A stretch of 64,000 nt of DNA from Yuukianura sp. NJ FZ-2021 (lineage: Eukaryota). Positions 21,763 through 39,800 of the stretch are shown piece after piece (the first letter of the stretch is position 1; the number at the start of each line of letters is the position of its first letter). The notes under the pieces were generated by a model that was given only the letters and a program-made list of their open reading frames with translations, did not search any database and was not told the origin of the DNA. Position numbers and translations under genes: made by a program. The stretch lies in NCBI GenBank assembly GCA_046563655.1, contig CM102285.1:9672001-9736000 (forward strand), read 5' to 3'.

Positions 21763-22811
21763 TTACGGAATGATTCTTTGCAGAAACTGCTTGACATCGT
21801 CTAACTCTTCGGGACAGGATGAGTGTCCCAACCTTGGATACGCCTTGAATTGATACCCTGTCAGATGACTCTTTAGTAACTGGGATGACAAGAGCCCGAA
21901 CTCGTAGTGAACCAAAGGGTCACTCTGCCCATGACACTGAAGTACTGGTACTTTCTGAACATTGCTGAGATCGATTTTCTTGTGAAGAGGGAGCCATGCT
22001 GACAGTGCAACTAAGCCTCCCAGCTTCTTTGGACCCGTGAGACCAACATGGAGAGCCAAACTACCGCCCTGGCTGAATCCTCCAAGAATAATACGATCGG
22101 CTGGAATTCCATTCGCAATCTGAAATCGTAAAACCTTTTGAATCAATAATATCAACGTCAGGTTGTAAAACATAGCTCATAAATCAGCACTGGTAATACC
22201 CAACCAAACGTACCTCCTGATCAATCAAGCCTTGAATGACTTGTGCTGCTCGCAATATTCCTGGCTCATCTTCTGGAGTGTTCGGATCCAATGATCTCAA
22301 GTCAAACCACGACGGCATTTCCATACCTCCATTTAGAGTCACCGGCATCTTGGCTCTGCAATGGATACATTCAAGTTAAGAATTTCGGTGGTTACAAGAA
22401 CATTAACAAGAACATTAGTGCAAATGCACGGTCGGCAGATCATAAATCGTGTCATGAGAACTTGCATATCGTTTTAGAAATATAACAAGACATACGCTGT
22501 GGGACATATCAATTTACAACCGCTTGGCTTCAAGGAGCTTAAGGTTCCAGACCATCCGTGGCTAAAAAGTGAATAGACCAACCATTAATGAGCGGAATGA
22601 CGCAAAGAAATTAGACCAAACGCAATAACTTACCCAGTATCCCCCAACCCATGCAAGAAGATAAACTAAAACCAAAAACAAAGAGGAACCATAACACAAA
22701 ACAGTCCATAGTCCATATTATCAAGTTTTTTCTATCGTTATACGGGAATCGTGTTACCGTAGACGTTTGTTTTCCAGTAGAGGCCACAGTCACTGGATTT
22801 TTTGACGACAT
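21763..22811 (-). CDS. Apt1: Acyl-protein thioesterase 1/2 (lysophospholipase), 5 coding exons
   Basis: IFLHGLGDTGHGW; ICPTAAKMPVTLNGGMEMPSWFDL; GGFSQGG nucleophile motif; QCHGQSDPLV; GHSSCPEEL. Confidence 0.95.
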
Positions 22812-23891: not shown

Positions 23892-26800
23892 TCAGGCATT
23901 TGTTGGGAGAGCAGTAGTTGTTTGGATTCCGCATCCAGCCATATTTGGATTTGCAGCCACTGCTTTAGCAGCCGCGAGAGCTTTATCCGCTTGATGAGGA
24001 TTCTGACGTTCTGGAGCAAGTAAATCAGAACGATCACGCTCCCTTTCACGACCGGGCCGGTAGGAGTCTATCAAAGAATCCACTCGCTCTTCAGTTGGTT
24101 TCCATTCTTCAAAACCAGCTTCGTTTTGTAACCAAAACACAACGGTAGCATGTGTAGAACGTATGGCAACTTCATTCCTGTAATTCCAGACAGAAATTGT
24201 CAATTCAACCTCTCAAATGAAGAAATTGTAACTTAATTTCATTAAAAATGTCAAAAATGTCTCACTTTGGAACAGTGTGCTGAGCTCCACTTCTGTAATC
24301 ATGTTCAAAAGCTGGGATTGTCACTTGCTTCCGTTTCCAACTGGAGTTTTGGAGTCGATTGATCCACAACGAGTCTTGATGATGACTCGACTCGTTCTTC
24401 CCATCAAACTCAGGCAGAAATATGACAAACGACATTGGTTCCAGAGTAGAAGCTGTGAACGAACAAAATGGCAAAACACGAGCATTAGAATAAAAAATTA
24501 AAAAATGACGTCGAACAACACCATAATTTAAAATACTAAAATTGGACTTTTTTCAGGCAAATGCCTCAAGATCGCTCATAAACCCACAAATCCGCGAATC
24601 CAAAATACTCCGCAATTGTAAAAGAGAACCTTTCACGGTAGCAAAGTACATTACCTCACAGATATTGATTGTGGTCAGACTCGTCATCGTATCATCATTA
24701 AAATCCAAGTAAAGTCTCCAGAAACAAAAGTAAAATCTTAAGGTTTCTTACCTAAAAGACTCTCCGCGTGCGTAATAGCTGCATCAATGAGATCATCACA
24801 TAATGGAGGATGCATTTCAAAGGATCCGCATAATGGGCGAAACTCCAAGAAAGTTCCGGAAGAACCGAAATATCCATCCACATCCGGAAAAGCAGAACAA
24901 TAGTTCCGAAAGTAGCAGTTGAATGGAGAAGAAAAGCATTCAAAGGTCACACCAAAATTCCGTTGGATGGATTCAAAAACAGGAGTAGGAATGGAACCTA
25001 CAGTAGAATTATAATAAAATTAAATACAATTCCCTCTAAAAATACGAGTAATAAATAATCATGATAAATGTAAATTCATGCTCAGAGAACACAACAAATA
25101 TCAATTTCAATACTAAATGCTTCGAGTTCGATGTCACGTCAAAAGTCAGGACTCACCTTGCGTTGTCTGGCATGTTGTGTATTCGTTACAGAACGCATTG
25201 TAACGCTTCAGCAGACAATATACTCGGGTAAGAAAAAGTTCCTGCTTCTTGTCGTCTAACGCATGGTACTTGTAGAGTGCGTCCTAAAATAGTAATTAAT
25301 CTTCAAGTCTTCCCAACTTATTAGGATATTACAACTTTGTGACAGAAATTAAAAATACCAGCTTCTGTAGGTAATTTAGAGAGATTCGCACAGGTTCGTT
25401 TTTGTGTTTGATTAGAACGTTATCCTTATCCTGCTGCAAATAATCCACCAATGGTTTGTTCGGTTGTGGCAATGCTTCTTCTTTGAAGTGATACTCCGCA
25501 CATATCGCGGCTTGTGATTTGAACCTTCCGATTTCCTAAGTCAACCAAGGTTTCGATCTTAGTTTAATATTAGTATTTCGATTCGCTCATAAAGAGAAAA
25601 GAATTACCGTGTTCTGCGAGTGTTTCACATCTCCAGGACAAACAAAAAGTGCTAGATGTGCCTCCCGCGACTGGAGAGCATACTGGCGCGATAAAACACT
25701 GATTTTCTTACAAATGCCTTCAACGGAAGTTTTGGCTGCTTCGTGAACTAGTGGCTGAATAGTTTCTTTCAAATGGGCCAACCGTTCTTGGAATGCTTCG
25801 TATGGTGCTCCGACTGTTTCCCTTAGCCAAGTAAACGTTTCTTCGGCTTTCCATTTTACCAATTTTCTGTGATCACTAGAAGCGCTTCTGTAAAACAAAT
25901 AAATTGGAAAAAGAAATTAATGACAGACCGGAAGCAACTGTTACTCCAGTGGATTTTCGTTTTCAATCTAACCTGGTTTCGATAGTTTTCTTGCAAGCTT
26001 CGGCGAATTTCGCCAGCTGCTTCCGTGCATCACCGGTAAACCGTGGTTTTACAACTCTCATGGGAACATCGTTCATGATTTCTCTGAACATTGACGCAGA
26101 TACCACGCCCTCTGGGTTTTCACAGTATGGAAACAAAGAATCCATCTTTGAATCTTTAATTTTTTGTTCCATAAGCCACCTAAATTCAACGAGGAGTTGT
26201 TCTGAGTACATCTTTAAAATATCTTTAAGTTTCTTAATTTAAAAACCTTTGAAAAGTGACCAAATTGCAGTAGATAAGAAGAAGGGCAATACCTATTGAG
26301 AGATTCCTTCGGAGAATCAATTTGTTCACGAGATTTGCAGGCTTGCTGGTAACAAAGCCTTAACTTCGCCAGTAGCTGATAACGTAGCTGCTCGATCTGC
26401 GGATGTGGTGGAAGCAAATCCGGCCGCGGTGCTTGTGCTTCAGCAGTATACACGTTTGATGAAACTTCCAGATCCCACGGCCCACTATAAGAATCAAATC
26501 GTGATAGGCTAGAAATTTTGACTTCAACATTTAATGATTTCTTACGAAATAATAATTCTCTTTGCGGGAGGACACCCTATGAATTCACCGGAAGATGCTC
26601 TTCTTTTCATTCCAGCGTGGACGCCAGCATGTTGAATACCAAGTGGATCAGTGATAGGATCATACTGTGTAGCAAAGCAAAAAACCGAATGTTTCGTTTA
26701 CTTACTTCACATTTTTACTGAAAAGTAGGCGCATAGTTTTCTTACATGATGTCCGTGGCGTCCAGGAGCGGGCATTTCCCAAATCGACTCGTTCGTATTG

Positions 26801-27633
26801 CAGTTGAAAAAGTAAAATCTTCCTTCCCGTTTACTCCAACACTTTGTCCATCCTTGTTCAACTAGATTGGGTGGTAATTCTGGTCCTTTGTCCGAGGGTG
26901 TAGCACCGAATGGATTTGGCATAGGGACACCCTAAAATTGAAATAGTGTAAATCAGAAGCGGACTGGTATGTTTAATAGACAACCAAATTATCGTACTTG
27001 AGGTGTCTGCGGCACTGATACGGCCGTGCTTCCAGAACTGGGAGGGTTTGGTGGAAGTGGAGACGCCGTTGGGAGTCGCAGCCCAACATTATACGGATCC
27101 ACATGCTGCTCTGGAGGAAGAACAGGTCCGGAACCGGAAGGATGATGGTAGAACTCCGGAGGTGGAAGATTTGGTGGATTTCCTAGCCTAGGACCTGGAA
27201 CAGTAGGAAGATGCTGCTGATGGTGTTGGGAATGAACTGGTGGTGACCCATGAAGCTGGTAATATGACTGCTGCTGCTGCTGTGGATGAAGATGTGGAAT
27301 ACTTGGATGCTGATGCTGGTGATGTTGAAGATGAAGTGGTGGATTGTTCGGTATCAATGGGTGCCCATGCGGCGGGTGATGTTGGTTATAAAGTGGTCCA
27401 CTAGAACCTTGATTGTGAATGTGGTTGACTGAGTCAAGATGTTGTTGTTGTTGGTGCGGGGGAAGATGAGGTGAGATGGGCATGGGCACTGACTCTGCTC
27501 GAAATGGCGGTGGAATCCCAATGTTATGTTGGTCCAAATGACCAACGGATGAAACTTCACTTCCTCCAGGATTATACGAGTAGTTTCCAATTGGTGGTCC
27601 ATTGCCACCATGTCCAAGTTCCCATGAAGCCAT
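23892..27633 (-). CDS. PCIF1: PCIF1/CAPAM (WW domain + cap-specific m6Am methyltransferase fold), multi-exon, with variant catalytic motif
   Basis: WW domain GWTKCWSKREGRFYFFNCNTNESIWEMP; PPHPQIEQLR; VVKPRFTGDARKQLAKFAEA; FECFSSPFNCYFRNYCSAFPDVDGYFGS; SFVIFLPE; VVFWLQNEAGFEEW. Confidence 0.95.
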
Positions 27634-29690
27634 TTTCCTTACCAGAAGTGTCGTTCCTTGGGTCAAATAGCTGTATTTTGTCAATTGTTAGTTAAAAATC
27701 GTTGACTTGGATGAGTCCACGTTAGAATCCATTGACGGAGAAATGGAGCAATACTCCACCCTAGACGACGCCTCAACTGCACCTGAACACTTTCCTTCTA
27801 TCATCTTCTGTATTGAATGGAATATGGAATCTTCTTCTCATGCGGGGAGATGTTGTCTCGGATTATAATGCTGTCACTATACTTACTAGCCAATGCGTCC
27901 AATATGCTGGCACTAAACAGCACCCACTACTGGCAAAAACCCCTGAACTGCTGATCTGTGAACACACACGTGTGTTTCCGCGTGCGCAGTCGGCCTCTTG
28001 ATGGTTTTTACTGAGCACTGTTGTGCATAGCAAATTTACACATTTGCCTTACCGCACCATGTATCGTGTTTTGAAAGGTCGGTTAATTGAAGACACAATT
28101 TTGATGCTAAACTATGCTTTCTTTCAATCATTTCTTTCTAGGATATTTCATATTTTGGATCTTATTATCAATTTTGTCTTATTAATCAATGACAAGAAGT
28201 TATTTATTTCGAGTTCGACTCGTCTTCTCCAGCAACATTGGTTTAAAGTGTCGTCGTAACTTGAAGCCTTAGCTTGGTTTGATTCTATTCTGGAAATATT
28301 TTTCTTTCATGTAGAATACTGCTGATGAGTTTGAAGTAAATTAACGTTAACTTTAATTAGGTGTAGTTGTGGTTAGCGTTAAATTCTCCAACGATTCATT
28401 AGATTTGTTTTTTCAACCGAGTGGTTTTGAAGTTCGGGTAGGGTGCGGCAAGCGGTTTTTGGACAAGAATGGCAGGTAGGTGAACCTTTTGTTTCAGAAG
28501 AAGCGTAGCGGTCTACCGCGAAGTTTAAATGAGATGGGGGACATTGTTTTGGTAAAGTCAAAAGTCGCAGAGGAGTACTGATCACTGGCGCCGCTGGTTA
28601 GGAAGGACCTTCTCGTTATGTCATAAGCGTAAAACACCATATCAATTAATTCGATTTAACAAACTCTTTTTTGTGCAAATCGCTAAATGGCTTGCTTTAA
28701 CGGCACTATATCAGAGGAACAGTGATGCATAATGTACAGATCTCTTGAAAAACTTGAATGAAATTAAGCAACAAAGATCATATCCACGAGACCGAAGGAA
28801 GTCGAGGACGAGAGGAAGAACGCAAAAAGTGGACGATCGTGTATGGTTGAGTTCGTACTAAATTAAGTGGAGTTGTATTTGGGTGGTGGTTCAGTGGTCA
28901 GTTGAATTTAGAACTGGTAGAAGTGATCAAATTTCTACATTTGACGACTACCAAATGATACGGTGATGGATGGGAGAGGTGAATCATATCACTAAACAGT
29001 AAGTAATTGATCAGTGAAGCGGAACTGACTAGCTGCTACTGAATACTAAATTGATTACCGATCTAACCGCGATCCGCGATTTATGATGGACGGCTGACGG
29101 TGAGCTAGTTGTTAGTAAAGTTCATTCTTCACCCGGATTTCTCCGTAACCTTAAAATTTTTATACCGGTAAGGATATCCGGCATGACATGTGTGTAATAC
29201 GGAAATCGTAGAGGATGACAACAAGACAACATTGTCTAGAATTTTCAACTTTAGACTTTCAAGCATGTAGAGTTAGGGTTTGGTGCAAGTTAGCAAGTTG
29301 TGGAGTCGGATTGCGTTTGGCTATTCAATTTAATTAAAAGCAATTAACAATGCATTGTTGAAGTTTATAATTTTGAACTGACCATTTGTCCTTGGGGATT
29401 GTTTTCAGGAGGGCCATTACCACTATCAACACGCATCGAAATTTTGCTAGTTTTTCGCCTTTCAAGAACACCTAAGGAAATCGGGGAGCGAGCTGAGCAA
29501 GAAGAGTCCCATTCATTACCGTCCCCAGTTTTATTCCACTGTTTACTTTAACAACTCTATGGGTTGTTGACGGGTTCTATTCTACCATTCGATTTCTGAA
29601 AACCAGCACAAATTGAGCTGTCTTTCTGAAGAAAAACCACTTCATTGAGCATCTCGTTAGTAGTTCGGCTAAAAACAGCAAGGCATCACG

Positions 29691-31487
29691 ATGCCTTCAT
29701 CACCTTGCAGAATGGAAACGCAGTACTTGACAACGGAGCATTTGGAAGGATTCGACAATTATAAAGTAATATTTTATATTAAATATTAAAACATCAAAAC
29801 TGTAAGTCATTATTGTGTTTTTAGTATTCATCTGTGGATACCAGTCCCTTGAGCAATTATGTGATGCACCCATTCTGGAATGCAGTGGTCAAGGTATGTT
29901 TAGGTTTTTTTCACATCGAATTTCTTAACTTCACACTACTTTCCAGATGTAGTAGGCAGGCGTCGAGACTATTTTTGTTTTAGTCTTGTTTTTGGAAATG
30001 GATAGTCTTGAGTTTTCTTGACTATTGAACCCGGAGTATGATAAATTCTAAGGTCATTTTGATTTTTTAAGTTGCGGTTTGATGGCTGTCTTATCAATTT
30101 CAGATTTGTCCAATGTGGATCGCACCAAATCTCCTAACCTTCACTGGATTCCTTTTTACCGTCGCAAATTTCGTTTTGCTGAGTATCTATGACTACAGTT
30201 TCCATGCTGCTGATCATGATAGTATGGATGGTTATTCACCGGTGCCAAAATGGGTTTGGATAATCGCTGCCTTCAACCTCTTCATGGCTCATACATTAGG
30301 TAAGTACTTAATAGCAGCCTTAATAGACTTGTTTATGTGCATGTCCGTCCATCTGCAATTAAGTTGAATGATATCTAACTTTTGATTGGTAAATGACTTC
30401 AGATGGCATCGATGGCAAACAAGCCAGGCGTACTGGCTCCTCTGGGCCTTTGGGAGAACTGTTTGACCATGGGTAAACATTTTTTTAAATAGCAGAAAAT
30501 ATGAAAATTCTAATAAGAATTGTTCTTTTTTAGGTTGGACTCATGGACTACAGTCTTTATTCCAACCGGTCTTTACTCTGTCTTCGGACGTGGACCCAGA
30601 AGTATACCAATCAAACGAATGTTCTTCTGTTATTGGAACGTTTTCTTCAATTTTATTTTTTCTCACTGGGAGAAGTATAATACAGGAGTACTTTACCTTC
30701 CGTGGGGCTACGACGCTTCCATGCTGGTAAGTTTTGAATAATATTGACTACATAGTAGGATAGACCATATCTGTTGACAACTTCGTGTCATCTCGACAAT
30801 TTTCTTTACTCCAGGCCTGCTTTATTGTTTTCCTCGTAAGTGCTTTCGGTGGGCACGAAATCTGGCATTTCAGCGTCCTAGGAATTTCCAGTGGAAACAT
30901 TGTCGAGTTTTTACTTTACGCTGGATCCATTGGGTTGTCAATGCCTGTCGCATGTTACAATGTCTACAGGTGACTTACTATTGAAAAAACTCAGCTTGTT
31001 ACTAAATGCGTTGGAAAAAATATTCATTGTACGCAAACGTTTGCTTTCCAGGAGCTACAAAGACGGAACGGGAAAATTAAGGCCGTACATCGAAGCCTTC
31101 CAACCTCTGTTTTCCTCCCTATTTCTAATGTTCATTACGACACTATGGGTGTTTCTGTCTCCTGTGGACATTTTGGAGGTGGAGCCTCGGATGTTCTTCT
31201 ACATGATGGGTACCATATTTTCGCACATTTGCTGTCGCCTGATTGTTGCCCAAATGAGCTCAACCAAGTGCGAAGCCTTTAACTGGTTGCTATTTCCAAC
31301 GACGGCTCTGACCCTGGTTGCCATTACTCTGAGACCTGGCCAAATATTTGAAGTGATGGCAGTCTACGTCCTCACGACACTCTCTACACTCACACAGATT
31401 CACTATGGTGTCTATGTTGTTCGACAAATGTGCAGGCACTTCAGGATCGACTGCTTCAAGATTAAGGATAAGGCAAACACAGATTGA
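29691..31487 (+). CDS. SELENOI: Ethanolaminephosphotransferase 1 (CDP-alcohol phosphotransferase), 7 coding exons; possible UGA recoding to 31508
   Basis: [46 protein letters not shown]-alcohol motif [46 protein letters not shown] (EPT1-type); [11 protein letters not shown]. Confidence 0.95.
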
Positions 31488-32636
31488 CTATTAGCCGACA
31501 GCGCATGAAGTATGTACATTGGAAGATTTAGAGTTGACAAAAACTTGGGATGAGAACATTGACAAGTTACGTGAAATATGACAACTGCACCAACACGTAC
31601 ATTCCTTTGTGTTGTTTTGTTTTATGTCCCAGTTTTTGTTTCCTTCTTAAATTTTTCAGTATACATTTGTGTGAATTGCATGGCAAAATCATTACATTTC
31701 CTTTTTGCTTCTTTACGTTTCAATTTTCCTTTTATTCGTTTCGATTTTCCTCTTCAACGCTAATTATTTCTGTTCATTTGATACAATTTCTTTTCCGTCG
31801 TTTTGCAAACCGCTTCTGTCCTGTATAAATTACTTTACTCCGGACCGTCTAATATCCGTCATTTTCCAGAATATATTGGTACCTGATTTTGAAATTTCGA
31901 AGTTGTTTTTTTTATTTTTCGAAATTCTGGGGAAAAAAACGGATGCCATTCCGAGCATCAGTTTTCGCTGGGCTCAAAAAAGCAGTGCAGCTATTAAATC
32001 TTTAATCTCCTTAAGCGGCCTGATTAACTAACACCTATTGGCTCAAATGGAACTTTTACTTTATAAAAATTCGCCCTTAGAATCGAACATAGTTTAAATC
32101 AGTTACAGCTTAATCACTCCAGCCCTTGTTTCCGATGCCTTTAAACTTATTAACATGTTACTTTAAAAAAATAGTGTCTAAAATTGCTTTAGTTTTGTAT
32201 TAGAAAACAAAGCATGCAGATGCATTTTCTAACAATATTGCTAAAATATACTTGTGAGGTGTTGCCAAAAACTCATCTTTAACCTCTCGTACTAAATCTT
32301 GTTCATAAACTATATGTTGACTACTGAATAACAAAGCTAGTTTTCTCAATTCTTACAACTGCTGTTCATCTTTCTTCATCTTTCTTGTTCTTTTGTATTG
32401 ATTTTGCCACAATTTATACATTTATTAACATCACTGTCATTGGACGCGTAAAATCCCAATAGGACTTCACTGTGTTTTGAATGACTTTTCATGCGTTGTC
32501 GCCTCGTAAAACCAACTCCATACTCATTCTCCAGAGTTTCCGAACAAAAAGTTAGATCTGGTTCCTAATATTCACAAATAATCCAGTAAATCCAGTTACT
32601 TAATAACGCTAATTTTTGGTAAAATTTACTCGAAAG

Positions 32637-32848
32637 TAGAGTAAAACCTCTCATTGCGCAACACGTTTTTCTCGTTCATTCAACGACGGGATACAGGAGA
32701 AATCAAATTTTCGAGAGATTATAATTAATAATAATCTAATACAAGGCGCAACATCAATTCGGCGATTGGAATTTAGCATAAGCACGCTGCTTAATTAGAA
32801 TTTCTAAAAAGTAAAAGCTCTCAGTGCGCACGGAGAGGTTTTACTGTA
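32637..32848. mobile_element. Degenerate MITE with TA-flanked (C/G)AGTAAAACCTCTC termini (Tc1/mariner-pogo-like)
   Basis: Left end TAGAGTAAAACCTCTCATTGCGCA versus reverse complement of right end TACAGTAAAACCTCTCCGTGCGCA. Confidence 0.65.
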
Positions 32849-33769
32849 CTTTCACTGTTTTGAAACAAGAGCCAGTTACTGAACTCTGCGACTTTCACTT
32901 TGTTCCTTCTTTTAGTTTAAACTTAAAGAATCAAAGCTTTAGTATCATTAGTATTTTCGGTACATCTTCTTACGTTTTCTTTGGAAGCAAAATTGATTCA
33001 AAAAGATTTCAATTCTTTCAAAATGCAACAGAATGGTATACTTTTGTGTAAAAGACAAATTCAAAACACTCTAAAAAAAAAGTCATTTATTGCCAAATGA
33101 GAATTATAAAAGTTAGAAAATTCGAAAATAGAAATAAAATTAGACGTTTCGTTGAAAGAGGCGTTGGCGTTTATTAACGTGACTTCAATTCCGTGAAGTC
33201 GTATTTCCATTTCGCTGGAATTGAAAACGTCACCGAGAAACAGTGACTAATAGGCAGCTTACCTTTAATTTCCAGGAATTTGAGATATGAAAAACACAGC
33301 AGCACTGCAGTAGAGTCGGAAGTGGCCTAGATTTCATTTATGACTGATAATCATGCAATCTCGTAATTATTAGTCACAGGAGAGTGTTAAAGTTGTTCAA
33401 GTGTTCTAAATTAGACTTTATTACATCATGTTCCAAACTGAATCCTGGAACACACAAGTTTCCACCAGTCTATTTTAAGCAGAGAACATACAAAATTAAA
33501 TTGAAACAGCCTTTGGGAAGTTATACACTGGAGTGTTCTTAGAAAACCACCATAAAACAATATATTATGCATGCTCAATATTTCTGTTCAAACGAAACTT
33601 TAAAACAGCAACGATGAGATTTTGAATTTAAAATTAAAAAAGAGAGAGCAAAATAATTTGTGATCTAGATCGACGCAGTCGTAGTTATTATAATGTTTTG
33701 GGCTGCGTTGTCTACGGACTATATAATTTTTGAATTCAAAATTTTGACGTTTTTTTTGAAGATTTGTCT

Positions 33770-36065
33770 TCATGATTTTGACGTAAGTCGGAAAACGGTT
33801 TCGACTCCATTGACGTTTACACTGACGGACTTTGTTGAGGAATCCATTTTGTCCAAGTACTTGGTGAAACTGCTAACGATATTCCTGTTTGAAAAGTTTA
33901 GAATCGTTATTTTCAAAATTTCGAAAAAATTGAAATGTACAATTTGTAATTTTACATGTATTTGTCTTGGAGTCCACTGGAATTTGTCTTGTAGCGAACA
34001 ATGAACCAGAGGTCACTGGGTAACTTGTAAGCATAGATGTCATGGGGAGCCTTGAAGTTTGGATTCATGTGCTTCTGAAATGCTTCCTGGAGGGTTGCAT
34101 GTTCATCATCTACTGGACTCGGTTTGATGTGATCCGTTGTCATGATATAGGCATGTCGTTCGTAGTCATTTTCCTCTGAATATTCTTCTTCTGATGACCT
34201 GTGACCTCTGGGGTGACTTTTGTAATTTGATTCTCGACGGATATGATTTGAGTGATGGCTGGGTACGCTGCTTTCACCGACTTTCTTTTCAACATTTTCT
34301 GTTTTTCTCCAAGGCTGGATTTCATTTTGGTGACTGTGCTGTGTATGCATTTGGTTGTTGGAATTATGTGACTCTTGTTCATTTCTCGTTCGATGTGTGC
34401 GTGAAGTCACGGAGCCAAAGGTCATGACCAGGAAATAGGCAATTACCTGGACAGGGAAAATAGAAAACAAGAGACATGTAACATTGTTTTGTATTGGAAA
34501 CTTTCTGTTTCAGAGAAAGTGAAAATACAAAACAGAATTTGAAACTCCAAATCCCTGTTTAAGGTCGAAACGGGATTGGAATGCAAATAGGATTTGGAAT
34601 TCTTCTGAGAAGAAAGTAATTTCAAAGTTCCATTAAGGGTGGAGAACTTCCTAAAATCCCAGAGAAAGCCAATTCACTAACATTTCCAAATAACACTGTT
34701 ACACTAAACCAATTTCCCAAAACATGCAACCTTTATTTCTGTTGATGATTTGGAAAGCTTTTCCCATTCCTTTTAACGATTTAACAATTGATTTCCGTTG
34801 TGCAAATAAATTTAATAACAAAAGAAGATGAAAGTGAATTTTTGGAAAACATTTTTTAATTTTTGAACCCTCCCCTGTTTCAGTTTCAATTAATATCTAA
34901 ATTGAAATTAATTAAAACTTTGCCTCTTAATTGCAATTTTAAAGCGTCCTTTCCTCGTTTAAAATTAGCTATTTTTAGCACTTTCTAGAATCTTTGACTT
35001 CGTAAATGCGAAATTCCGGTTACGTCATGGAATTATTTGTCCCATGAATTGAAACGTTAAGTCTTTGAAGATAAACAATTTTTATTCAAGTTTTTATGAT
35101 GAAAAAATTAATCGTGTTTGAATTGACTACAATTCCAGTATGCCCTTTGACCTCTTGAGTACGCATTAATTTTTTTTCTCACAAAGAAGACTGGATTATG
35201 TCATTCCCAATTTTAGTTTGCCAAAAATAAATGACAACGACCATCCTTAAATTTCCATATACGAGGCAAATTACTGTGTGTAGGAAGAGTATTAGCAGAG
35301 AAAAAGTTGTCTTTACTGAATTATTTGCATAAGTACTATTGAAAATTGGCGACAGAAATTTTTGCAACACAAAAAATTCCTTTTGTTCTCCCAACTTCAT
35401 TTTCATTTGGGGAACTTTGTCAACAGGTCCTTTTGTAGTCTTATGAGTAGGCTGAATATTTTCGGAAAATAAAACTTCTTTTTGGAAAGAAAATTCTTGC
35501 TTTTTGCAAAAATTAATTCAATCGACAGTTGAATAGGTGAGTGGACAGGCAAAACGTTTACCTTAGCTTAAGCTCATAGACAGCATGAAGGTTATCCTAA
35601 ATTCGTATAAAAAATGTAACCCGGATTTTGTAGCACTTTCCTCCTGTACTTTACGCCTAAAATGACGTCAGCTGAAGCGTCAACTTCAACAGTTCACTCG
35701 TGACAGGAACCTATTATCCTCCACTTTACTTCAAGTGTCAATTTCCGCCCATATGAGTCCCAAATCCTTTAGGAAATCTCCTCTGATTTTTCATTTTTGA
35801 AAAAAAAAATCTCAAATTCAATCAGTAGTTTTCATCTCTCAAAATCTCAAATTCTCAGATTTTGAAAAAGAAAACTGCAAAAGTTATTAAATTCGACTAA
35901 ATTTAAAATGTCACAGTGGTAATTTCTGGAACTTCCGGAAAACCATGCTTTATATACAAGTTCAAGTTGTGTTATTATGATTTATCATAAATTGTTGTTT
36001 ACATTATTATAATTCTAAGTAAAGTTTGTTGATCATACCGTAAACACTGGATGAGGAAACCGCAT
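33770..36065 (-). CDS. Secreted His/Glu/Ser-rich protein of unknown function, 3 coding exons
   Basis: Exon 36065-36039 (MRFPHPVFT) splices in phase to exon 34446-~33956 (VIAYFLVMTFGSVTS...), completing a signal peptide. The last exon reads NIVSSFTKYLDK...VFRLTSKS*. Confidence 0.65.
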
Positions 36066-36794
36066 CTTGTGAAAAGTTATTTTCCAATTGGCTGAAACTG
36101 GAACACTTTCACTATTGTTTCTCAGATTTCCGGATCGCTTGAGACGAGAGCTTGGCTGGAAGCGTTCCAGGAGCTTTCAGAAGTGACTTTCTCCTTCGTT
36201 TGGTAAATCCCAAGTAAAGTCTTCTGAGATTGTAACGGTGCCTTGTGCTAAAGTATCTTATTTGCTCGAGGTGATTTCTATTGTTGTACGAGTGCCTTTA
36301 AGGATTGAAACAAGATTTCAAAAGTGCGGAATCTTAAACTGGAAAGATGTTTCTTCTGCAAAGAAGATGGAAATCCTTTTGGGAAGCGTTTGAAGTGTTG
36401 TGGCGGAGGGAATCGATGATGATGAGATGAGGAGATGATGGGAAGTGAAGCGTAAAAGAAAAAGCGTTTGTTTTGTGATCTTCTCTCTGGTTAGGCTATG
36501 ATGATGATGCCATCAGTCCTTTAGTCCACGACTACAATACAAATCTTCCCTATTTTTTTCCTAAACCAAAAGCACACCCACTTCCAATAAGAACTAAAAT
36601 TCAGAAAGAAACAGGCCGCCAGTGCACAGGTACTTAATTACATTTCTTTCTCAGAATTTCCGAACCTATTGTTACTGAGGGGAAGGAACTTGGACTTGAC
36701 GACGGCAAGGAATAGTAGGGAGTGGTGGTAACAAATGGAACGATTCTAAATGCTTCTTGTTCCTAGAATGCCAAAAGCCTAGTCTAGACGTAAC

Positions 36795-36866
36795 GGTTAG
36801 GTTAAACAGTTTTTCCAAAAGGTTAGGCTATCCCTACGTTAGGTTAGGTTAAACAGTTTTTCCAAA
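36795..36866. repeat. 25-bp direct repeat containing TTAGG units
   Basis: GGTTAGGTTAAACAGTTTTTCCAAA at 36795-36819 and 36842-36866, with further TTAGG units in between. Confidence 0.75.
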
Positions 36867-39800
36867 TCCCAATAACTCCCGGTCCCCCCTCCCCACTAAC
36901 TTGTTCTAATTATTGTTTTTCTTTGGAAAGCGTACCAGGAAACTTGGAAACTATTTGGAAAGAAATATTTGACAAGTGCCAGGGCCCCTTTGCGAACTTT
37001 TCACACGCACGGTTCTGGAAGAACTGAAACGAACAAGCCACAGTTCCTCCAGTTTCTTTCTGAAAGCAAAGCGACGTGCTGAAAGCTCTTGAACAAGAGG
37101 AACAACGCTTTCCAGCTCCAGATTCAGCGTCTGGTGGTACAAAAGAACCTACGGTTATTAAAATCTATAAATTCAATTGGACTTGGGTCATGAAGGCTTG
37201 GTGGTTTGCTAAACTTTTACAATTACGACTTTTACGACAATCCGAACAACGGAGCAGTCCAAATTCTTCCAACCAAAAAATTCTTAAGCCTAACCTAACT
37301 TTTGAGAGACTTTTAACGAAATTTTTTGGAGTTTCTTCAAAAATTTGCAAAAGTTTTAATAGAATTTAACTTGCGAAGTCCCTGAGGGTTTAAAAGTTTT
37401 GAATTTTTTGATTTTTTTTTCTCGAAACTTTGTGGATCAAAATCATGTATAGATTTTTGTGTAGAGGAATTTGTTGTGGTTTGTGGAATGTTTCGGCATC
37501 ATCTGAACAACATATGGTAGTACACACACTGTTATGCCCAAATGAAGGCAAAAGTAGTAAGTAACCCACGCACTACACAAAACTTGAACTCTGCAGCAAC
37601 GCAGAACGTGAAAGAAGCAGATGTGAAATGCTGCTCAAAAAGACTTGCACGGAAGGAAAACCTCTTGAAATTGGCCAAAGAACCAAACGGTTCCCATGAT
37701 CTCGTAAGAATTTGACACTTTGGAACTCGTAAAGCACTCGGCAGAGTGAGGTTAACTCAGGCCCTTATGTAGCGCATAGGAGGATCCACTTCCAGGAAAC
37801 ACTTTTTAGAAAACAGAATTTACTGTGTGAACCAATTCTCACCAGTCAAAAACCACAACTTTCAACCAAAAACCAAAAAATGGGTCTGACATTTACTATT
37901 TGTGAAAACAGAATGTCAAAATTCTGAAAAAGGGCAACAACGTAACATGGCCTTTATGAATGAGTCTCATGAGGTTTGACAAAGTAGGAGAAAGCAGGTC
38001 AAATTTTTGCGTTTATACGAAATGCAAAATTCTACATAACAAAGTTTTGCAAGTTTGTTAATTTTTTAACTTTTGGAAAGTAAACGACAACTTTCCATGT
38101 TTCAAACTTTTCAAAAAAGACTAACAAGGTATAGTAGATGAAATTAAAAATGGACAAAGTGTTTCCTATTTGTAGTAAAAGTAAATTTGGCTCGGACTCC
38201 TCGTTAAATTATTTTCTACGAGAGCACTTCAGTTTCGTAATAACTTTTACTTTTTCGCAAGTTTTCTCCAAAGTTTCAAGATACCCTTATGAATTTTTGG
38301 AAAAAGTGAGCAGTGAAAGCGACGACGGTGAAAGTGTTTCTGCACTGCAGCAAGTTGTTCATCGTTGTGGTGGATTATGAAATTCAAAATTATCACACCG
38401 CCATGGCCATGTCCATTATCCCCGAGGAGGTGAAAGTCTGCTTTCTCCCAACATGAGAATCCCTTTTCCGTGTTAAGATCAGCCAGTAGAGGTTAGGTTG
38501 TTAGTGAAGCCTAACTTAGGATGAAAGTAAGCTTAGAATGTGTTACTAACCAAGGAAAAGACGCTTCCAGCGTCTCAAATTGTATTAGGACGAGGCAAAA
38601 GATTGATGAGGTAAATATCTTCCTGAACCCCTTTCCCCTTCACTTCCACTGGAACCACTTTCTCTCTGTTCTTTCCCCACGAGATGATCTTGGAAATAAA
38701 TAGCAAGGGAGCTTGGTTAGGTTTTGGAACTGACTGCTACTGTTATGAAAGTCCTTCATACTGGGTAGCACATCCTCTGAATCATCATCTTGAGCAGACA
38801 AGAACGGAGCAGCATGTTCCAGTAGTACTGCTGCTGAAATGGTGCTGGAAGAATCAAGATGGATAAGTTGATGTTGATGACGGCATTAGACCTGACTGAG
38901 ACTTTAGAAGACTTCAATTTATGCTTTTCAAAGGGGAGAATGAGCACGAGAACCAATTTATCTTCCTTTGTTGCACAAAGGATGATGAGAATCCATTTCT
39001 TAGGCTTCAAGGCCCTGGCTGCAAGAGGCTTACAAAGAATTCGCACATTCAGCACAAAGTGGTCCACACATCTCCACTTCTCAGCACTTTCTGCATTTCA
39101 TTTCCAGAGACCGGATTAACTTATAACTATGGAAAAGTTACACTTTATTACTTAAACTACGACCTTATTAATTAGCTAAATTGGTTGCTTAAATCTTTCT
39201 TAATTACGTTTTTCCTTCACTTTTAAAAAGTGTTTCCAACTAAAGTAACCTAAAATATAAGCAGTAACAATTTTATGGTAGGTTCAGAAAAATTTGAAAA
39301 TGATAGTCCTCTTAAACACATAGTATTTAATTTAATTAAGGCAACTTTACCTTTTCTTACCGTTGTATTTTCATTTAATTTTCACTCTAACATTTCCCTT
39401 ATGTTTACCTACTTTATGAGGCAAAATTACAGATTTAGTAAAGCTTTTTGTAGTTTTCATCAAAATTCGTCTAATTGGGTTATACTTTTATACTACAGTT
39501 AAGTGATGAGTAGCATTACAATCACAACTGCAATCGCAATTACTTGTAATAAACAAAAACTTGACAAACAATAAAATTTCCACATAATTGGCACTTTTGA
39601 ATCGAGAAGATTTCTGAAAAAATAAATTTTAAAGTATTTTGAGGCAACTACGACAGGGCGGGTCTCAAACTTGTAAGATCAATGTTGAGTGGAACCGCCG
39701 TGGAATTCAGAATGTTCTGTTAAATTTCAAAAAAAGACTTTCACTTTAACATCCACCAACACACTAAACTGACTTAAAGGATTTCAAAATTTTAAGGTTT

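Follow-up and report, generated by a model that had tools for sequence, protein, structure and literature searches.

A conserved UGA-CUA stop and a covarying long-range RNA helix suggest programmed readthrough of arthropod EPT1 at the apparent counterpart of the vertebrate selenocysteine codon

The gene for ethanolaminephosphotransferase 1 (EPT1, the SELENOI orthologue) is located in a stretch of 64,000 nucleotides (nt) from Yuukianura sp. NJ FZ-2021 (GenBank assembly GCA_046563655.1, contig CM102285.1, positions 9,672,001 to 9,736,000 of the forward strand). The whole stretch is referred to here as the window, and coordinates are positions within it. The subject of this report is the 3' end of the gene, where a UGA stop codon, the sequence directly behind it and a long-range RNA helix together have the appearance of a readthrough signal.

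The EPT1 coding region covers 29706-31484 on the forward strand, as do all features described here unless stated otherwise. Seven collinear exon matches to EPT1 proteins were obtained at 29706-31478 (tblastn, queries P0003 and P0007 = Orchesella cincta EPT1), and the approximate exon borders are 29706-29765, 29825-29935, 30101-30298, 30396-30473, 30535-30735, 30809-30970 and 31052-31484. The last exon (about 31052-31484) displays 65-74% identity to EPT1 of Orchesella cincta and unnamed relatives, and its acceptor AG could be read from the sequence at 31050-31051. The EPT1 homologues of the window gene carry the CDP-alcohol phosphatidyltransferase domain (PF01066). For the exon at 30396-30473 the PF01066 match stays below threshold (E 0.0025, 18.7 bits vs a cut-off of 22), and no Pfam family was recognised in the three long open reading frames (ORFs) of EPT1 exons, because these fragments are too short. 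A sequence search of the PDB with EPT1 returned weak matches to CHPT1 and CEPT1 only; no SELENOI structure was matched. Judged by its exon matches, the window gene is an EPT1 orthologue, and the identities make a springtail or one of its close relatives the probable source of the DNA.

The EPT1 frame stops at the TGA at 31485-31487. It is followed by six sense codons (CTA TTA GCC GAC AGC GCA, 31488-31505), encoding Leu-Leu-Ala-Asp-Ser-Ala, and by a second in-frame stop, the TGA at 31506-31508. This is exactly the arrangement that had been described in an earlier, sequence-only reading of the same DNA. The first UGA, the annotated stop of EPT1, stands where vertebrate SELENOI predictions are cut off, i.e. 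at their selenocysteine (Sec) codon. The nine nucleotides behind it (CUAUUAGCC, 31488-31496) complete the leaky UGA-CUA context and form a spacer, which is identical in 9-12 of 12 lineage representatives at each position. Directly after this spacer, 9 nt past the stop, begins a helix that closes on the distal 3' untranslated region (3'UTR) about 1 kb downstream. The core of its proximal arm (GACAGCGCAUGA) lies at 31497-31508, so that the second stop falls within it, and the arm reaches 31493-31510 with one C-C mismatch. The core of the distal arm (UCAUGCGUUGUC) lies at 32489-32500 and extends to 32487-32504, next to a conserved flank, CCUCGUA.

For comparison, 80 EPT1 loci were taken from a scan of metagenome contigs. 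Many of these are intron-less and mRNA-like, and their taxon labels are given by the best identity to named proteins. The cassette with TGA-CTA is present in springtail-like loci (L001-L005 and L026), in a Daphnia-like locus (L007, 77%) and its relative L006, in a barnacle-like locus (L031, 80% to Amphibalanus), in ant-like loci (L055-L057, 81-91% to Temnothorax) and in an unplaced insect locus (L059). Further motif-bearing loci are mayfly-like (L052, 78% to Cloeon, with the stop context TGA-CTT) and centipede-like (L012, 69% to Strigamia). In all 15 motif-bearing loci the codon after the conserved Asp/Glu is TGA, and the next codon is CTA in 13, CTG in one and CTT in one. The 12 nt after the stop hardly vary between the springtail-, water-flea-, barnacle-, ant-, mayfly- and centipede-like sequences.

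The choice of stop codon is also skewed at this site. Among the distinct C-terminal tails of the 80 loci, 14 end here, 12 of them with TGA-C and two with TAA-C (L040 and L045). The 43 distinct tails that end elsewhere use TGA (23), TAA (11) or TAG (9), and only three of them have TGA-C. From these counts, the enrichment of TGA-C and the conserved context at the site are judged not to be chance. UGA-CUA is given as a consensus readthrough motif in PMC3159437, and the earlier proposal of a readthrough-promoting context agrees with this. A replacement of the stop by TAA or TAG in relatives, or a loss of CTA and of the extension, had been named as the finding that would speak against the proposal; in the motif-bearing loci TGA is universal, and CTA is kept in all but two.

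The read-on peptide is conserved in 13 loci with synonymous changes, as LLADSA, LLADNA, LLADDA, LLADSAC, LLADSTC, LLADDAC or LLDDSAY. Codons for the second Leu are TTA, TTG or CTT (CTT in ants), and those for the Ala at position six are GCA, GCG, GCT or GCC. A frame-breaking indel is absent from 14 of the 15 loci. The second stop varies between TGA, TAG and TAA and is found 6-7 codons on in 13/15 loci, five codons on in L012 (where the read-on sequence is LAGQI, then stop) and 27 codons on in L052. In the first four codons after the stop, 9-10 of 12 lineage representatives agree at third positions, compared with 4-10 of 12 in the eight codons before it. This pattern points to an RNA signal that overlaps a short coding stretch. 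At L052:822-912, GCCGAC occurs twice within 25 nt, and a 13-pair partner is found at +278.

The helix came to light because a k-mer and blastn search for common SECIS-like blocks (SECIS, selenocysteine insertion sequence) in the 3'UTRs yielded the reverse complement of the extension; a SECIS-like block was not obtained from this comparison of 3'UTRs. Each long-range locus has a pairing partner 190-1130 nt after the stop, and pairing begins at +11 to +13, counted from the first base of the stop. Thirteen regions that run from the stop to the distal arm, with 3 nt added at either end, were aligned with plain MAFFT (1442 columns). For this alignment RNAalifold predicts one consensus structure only, consisting of 11 pairs between columns 16-26 and 1416-1426; both partners change in six of these pairs, and pairing holds in 142 of 143 cells. 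The distance from helix start to stop is equal in 13/13 aligned sequences. In an ungapped pairing table, 153/156 cells are paired and 7/12 columns are compensatory, compared with 26-77/156 paired cells when the registers are slid by 1-3 nt. The helix is closed at 31485-32510 of the window by both the minimum free energy (MFE) and the centroid structure, and by the MFE structure in six other loci. In the ant-like loci it takes a 23-of-24-bp form. The centipede-like L012 has a local 12-bp hairpin at +8 instead (z -3.97; 0/200 shuffles fold as well), followed by a CCUCGU flank, as at the distal arms.

Further structural features accompany this helix in the window. An inner inverted pair is formed by GGCAAAAUCA at 31682-31691, within which the 10-mers are common to springtail-like loci, and UGAUUUUGCC at 32399-32408, a block aligned in five springtail-like rows. 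The pair is formed in the MFE and centroid structures of the window and is conserved in springtail-like loci. Some bases of the spacer at 31488-31496 can themselves pair with the conserved CCUCG(U/G) next to the distal arm, and such pairs appear as a lower stem in MFE folds. An ATTAAA is located at 31993-31998, between the helix arms. The first canonical AATAAA after the distal arm lies at 33133-33138, about 630 nt past it, and is a possible poly(A) signal by pattern position only. The choice of poly(A) site could switch the helix off, because use of a proximal site would remove the distal arm.

The position of the UGA relative to the vertebrate Sec codon was approached by a joint alignment, in which the vertebrate SELENOI sequences are automated predictions, none of which includes its Sec. 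The predictions for a mammal (Castor canadensis, 90% cluster of P0200; C-terminal sequence ...SLRKPNSD), for a bird (protein name 'Selenoprotein I'; ...SLRKPTPD) and for a hagfish (...SLKKMNSE) all end at the same Asp/Glu as arthropod EPT1. The Sec of SELENOI is reported as residue 387, near the C-terminus, in a tail predicted to be cytosolic (PMC8540796, in its account of the protein). The vertebrate predictions are evidently cut at the Sec codon, since this residue lies so close to the C-terminus. The spacing from the HYG motif to the end equals that of vertebrates in centipede, millipede, horseshoe crab, spider and tick proteins; it is one residue shorter in most insects and crustaceans and one residue longer in the window. 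At the protein level only, EPT1 predictions of many more named arthropods, among them bees, wasps, beetles, termites, decapods, spiders and a horseshoe crab, end at the same residue. The positional homology of the arthropod UGA with the vertebrate Sec codon, which the earlier reading had proposed, is supported, indirectly, by these alignments.

No SECIS could be found to go with this UGA. There was no Rfam covariance-model match at E<=10 in 29000-37000 or 31450-32650 of the window, in 11 loci (34,210 bases) or in the 3'UTR of L006, which a terminal poly(A) run marks as complete. A search of the whole window at gathering thresholds likewise gave no SECIS. A custom pattern and pairing scanner gave 0 matches in 12 UTRs vs a mean of 0.54 in shuffles, a result of little weight, as the scanner was run without a positive control. 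These searches extend the earlier impression, gained by eye, that no SECIS is visible. It was also considered whether the helix itself might form a SECIS. This candidate was rejected, since every base of the AUGA at the second stop lies in a Watson-Crick pair, tandem G-A pairs are lacking, and L006, L007 and L059 do not have this AUGA.

The tails of relatives give a view of what the extension may encode. EPT1 homologues without a stop at this site, such as that of the copepod Lepeophtheirus (P0318) and many unnamed ones, have an acidic residue, up to four further residues, Arg-Leu-Leu and then Ser, Asp or Pro. The read-on sequence X-Leu-Leu-Ala-Asp resembles ordinary coding tails, because the stop-less lineages have Arg-Leu-Leu there. 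Near-cognate tRNAs at UGA are known to insert Arg among other residues. That Arg would be the residue inserted at the EPT1 UGA is a lead, not a result, as the alignment in this variable region is loose. The tail may plausibly serve sorting or stability. Long tails of the copepod-like kind fit [DE]xxxL[LI]. For the read-on tail, an acidic-dileucine or DXXLL sorting motif was considered and set aside as a loose lead, the acidic residue being, by eye, not at the canonical distance. In Lepidoptera, EPT1 (P0324, P0331, P0332, P0334, P0337-P0340, P0344) ends in Lys-rich tails of the ...VPKEKRK type and not at the conserved Asp/Glu. These tails resemble KxKxx signals for retrieval to the endoplasmic reticulum, which would fit trafficking information in the cytosolic tail.

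Taken together, the UGA of arthropod EPT1 is probably a programmed, SECIS-independent readthrough site that adds X-LLADSA to the enzyme. The signal would have two parts. The first is the leaky UGA-CUA within its almost invariant 12-nt stretch, and the second is a helix of at least 11-12 bp, placed 9 nt past the stop and formed in most lineages between the stop-proximal sequence and a 3'UTR segment 190-1130 nt downstream. With the UGA in the ribosomal A site, the foot of the helix would come to lie at the entry channel for mRNA. A near-cognate tRNA could then, if known readthrough stimulators are a guide, outcompete the release factor in a fraction of the rounds. Such ribosomes would add one residue at the UGA, continue with Leu-Leu-Ala-Asp-Ser-Ala and halt at the second stop, inside the helix. 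The outcome would be two cytosolic C-terminal forms of the enzyme from EPT1. Readthrough by the ribosome, its frequency, the inserted residue and the function of the tail are inferred here. Two explanations had been offered by the sequence-only reading, an arthropod Sec-SELENOI and SECIS-independent readthrough, and the evidence favours the latter, given the kept cassette, the ant-like loci and the missing SECIS. That proposal held no structural half of the signal; the covarying helix is an addition to it.

Several points weigh against readthrough. The registers of the ungapped pairing table had been picked by best pairing, and the per-locus duplex shuffles are moderate (in the 13 long-range loci and L052, a run as long as the observed one arises in 0-38 of 300). 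The argument for the helix is carried by the common register and the covariation, not by the per-locus shuffles. The extension counts only 6-7 codons and overlaps the RNA signal, so that constraints on amino acids and on nucleotides are not cleanly separable. In the mayfly-like L052, GCCGAC and a candidate helix are retained, but a 1-nt deletion leads to a different read-on peptide of 27 codons. The frame shift with the RNA motif kept suggests that the RNA element is more constrained than the peptide; L052 represents either a lineage in which the element was kept and the peptide changed, or an assembly error. TAA is the stop at or beside the site in two distant loci of unknown taxon, L040 and L045 (about 35% identity). 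Finally, the SECIS negative depends on Rfam models and an unvalidated scanner, without a positive control, and the 3'UTR is demonstrably complete only in L006.

Part of these observations would also be expected if the UGA were an efficient, plain stop and the conserved 12 nt and the helix served mRNA localisation or stability, the regulation of termination or recycling, or the selection of a poly(A) site, with the extension not meaningfully made. The nucleotide conservation exceeds the needs of the peptide, L052 retains the motif and not the frame, a coding test of such a short extension has little power, and the ATTAAA at 31993 between the arms would allow the helix to relate to 3'-end choice. 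However, a purely structural element gives no reason for TGA-CTA in nearly all lineages or for a helix that keeps a constant distance to the stop in every aligned sequence. Moreover, Leu-Leu-Ala-Asp outlasts the replacement of synonymous codons (TTA by CTT in ants), and the peptide is like the Arg-Leu-Leu tails that are ordinarily translated in other lineages. Plain termination is considered unlikely. Editing of the mRNA is far more improbable. In this case the duplex would be a substrate for ADAR, and adenosine-to-inosine conversion would turn UGA into UGG (Trp) in part of the mRNA. Insect editing sites typically combine exonic ultra-conservation with a complementary sequence far away, and the EPT1 duplex fits this pattern. 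However, the covarying helix spans +12 to +22 and leaves the UGA outside, and no constant base faces the A of the UGA (among 11 loci, A in 3, C in 2, G in 4, T in 2). The mature mRNA carries TGA, not TGG, in 5/5 RNA-derived contigs with an uninterrupted coding sequence (L002, L003, L006, L007 and L031), although consensus contigs would hide partial editing.

An unrecognised selenoprotein is an explanation of another kind, and it is held to be quite unlikely, if less so than editing. Sec would be inserted at the UGA in Sec-competent arthropods (perhaps springtails, water fleas and centipedes) with the aid of a non-canonical or distant SECIS, and the helix would be a helper similar to a selenocysteine redefinition element (SRE). 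The UGA does lie where the vertebrate SELENOI predictions are cut. Stems of the SRE type are known beside Sec codons, where according to the discussion in PMC4561486 they promote the insertion of Sec as well as readthrough without a SECIS. Many selenoproteins are described for non-insect arthropods, Strigamia among them (PMC4244043, in the part on this group), and most of the contigs have no proven 3' end, so that a distal SECIS could be missed. Against this stand the SECIS searches at E<=10 reported above, including the one in the complete 3'UTR of L006, and the ant-like loci. L055-L057 keep TGA-CTA, the LLADDAC extension and the helix at the Sec-homologous site. Honey bee and Nasonia are reported to have lost selenoproteins and the capacity to make them (PMC2500217), and Hymenoptera in general are described as lacking the Sec machinery (PMC4561486, both as far as these accounts concern Hymenoptera). 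The UGA of the ant-like loci must therefore be a plain stop or be read by an ordinary tRNA. Cys, the usual replacement of Sec, is aligned with the UGA in no lineage among the C-terminal EPT1 tails listed, in a variable region where the alignment is loose; the stop-less lineages have Arg. In its section on SELENOI, a 2026 survey that includes Strigamia reports no non-vertebrate homologue covering the Sec position (PMC13134290). Such surveys see none because in the annotations the invertebrate proteins stop one codon short, at the conserved UGA.

If readthrough is accepted, the recoding at the EPT1 site looks, from the distribution of the cassette, far older than vertebrates. SELENOI has been held to originate at the vertebrate root (PMC13134290) or in the 'vertebrate era' (PMC3473315), in the passages of these papers on its phylogeny. 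A more tentative scenario, which is regarded as possible rather than probable, is that the vertebrate Sec codon goes back not to a sense codon but to the stop codon of the ancestral bilaterian EPT1. This stop would already have been leaky and stimulated by structure, a short cytosolic tail would have been made through near-cognate (possibly Arg) readthrough, and vertebrates would have gained the SECIS later, taking the codon over for Sec. If this were true, programmed readthrough would have been an evolutionary stepping stone to a selenoprotein. The alternative is the mirror image, an ancient Sec-EPT1 whose SECIS was lost in arthropods and whose UGA survived via readthrough, as in SPS1. L040 and L045 are lineages without a kept UGA and would help to date the origin or loss of the cassette.

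Should SECIS-independent readthrough be true, the arthropod EPT1 annotations miss a conserved C-terminal isoform. EPT1 would offer a cellular readthrough site common to myriapods, crustaceans and hexapods, with a helix span of up to about 1 kb, and a concrete, testable route from a stop codon to a Sec codon. SELENOI is described as not being a redox enzyme, with its Sec outside the active site (PMC13134290; PMC3473315, in their remarks on its function). Readthrough in arthropods would thus hint that this enigmatic Sec serves the tail (trafficking or stability) and not catalysis. No paper linking EPT1 or SELENOI to non-Sec readthrough was found in a search that left aside the supplementary lists of readthrough candidates from Drosophila and Anopheles, which may bear on priority. 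The type of mechanism is known; what seems to be unreported is the gene concerned, how deep the conservation goes, the helix at kilobase range and the overlap in position with the vertebrate Sec codon.

Some other features were encountered on the way. On the reverse strand of the window, in the neighbourhood of EPT1, there are an Abhydrolase_2 exon (acyl-protein thioesterase-like, 21763-22176, E 2.7e-36), a WW-domain exon (26707-26931, E 1.1e-10) and a long Gln/His/Pro-rich ORF (26989-27687) for which no Pfam match was obtained. In the insect-like genomic contig L059, a match to the Rfam family MIR7807 (a plant microRNA precursor family) is located at 1698-1856, directly 5' of the last EPT1 exon (37.6 bits vs a gathering threshold of 90, E 0.00028). 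It is most likely a long hairpin or inverted repeat in an intron.

Among the known systems, the candidate site in EPT1 is closest in design to the readthrough class described by Firth et al. 2011 (PMC3159437; the details that follow are those given there for this class), which comprises the UGA of alphavirus nsP3/nsP4 as well as Drosophila kelch and headcase. In that class UGA-CUA or UGA-CGG is followed by a conserved spacer of 8-12 nt, a stem of 10-14 bp and a loop put at 100-270 nt for the class, with 52-268 nt closed by the stem in the cases described. EPT1 has the same UGA with C or CUA, the same spacer and a comparable stem. In both, the stem's halves have a long, poorly conserved 'loop' between them, and compensatory changes are accompanied by raised conservation at synonymous sites. 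EPT1 differs in that its stem closes over about 190-1130 nt and lies in the 3'UTR of a cellular gene, and in that the extension of 6-7 codons puts the second stop inside the stem. The distribution is different as well: the EPT1 cassette spans at least myriapods, crustaceans and hexapods, whereas the cases in that paper stay within one genus or virus group. According to the same source, readthrough in luteoviruses (barley yellow dwarf virus) needs a distal element some 700-750 nt past the stop, for which pairing with stop-proximal sequence has been proposed, much as in EPT1. However, barley yellow dwarf virus has a viral UAG in a C-rich repeat context and a long extension, whereas EPT1 has a cellular UGA-CUA and a very short one.

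With vertebrate SELENOI the comparison concerns the orthologous enzyme. There, a recoded UGA (Sec387, SECIS-dependent) follows the same Asp/Glu, past the last transmembrane segment in the cytosolic tail, with a short tail beyond. Vertebrates use Sec and a SECIS, whereas no SECIS was found for arthropod EPT1, and the tail sequence differs. The insect SPS1-UGA with its hymenopteran readthrough element (Mariotti et al. 2015, PMC4561486, in its treatment of this gene) shares other properties with EPT1: a UGA at a Sec position, no SECIS, retention in Sec-less Hymenoptera, conserved RNA structure and 3' context, and an inferred outcome of readthrough without Sec. The UGA of SPS1 is internal, lies in a three-stem structure, at its apex, and has GGG-UG[C/U] behind it, whereas that of EPT1 is an annotated stop followed by CUA-UUA, with the stem 9 nt downstream. 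The direction of change may also be the reverse, because in SPS1 the Sec form is ancestral, whereas the Sec form of EPT1 is known only in vertebrates.

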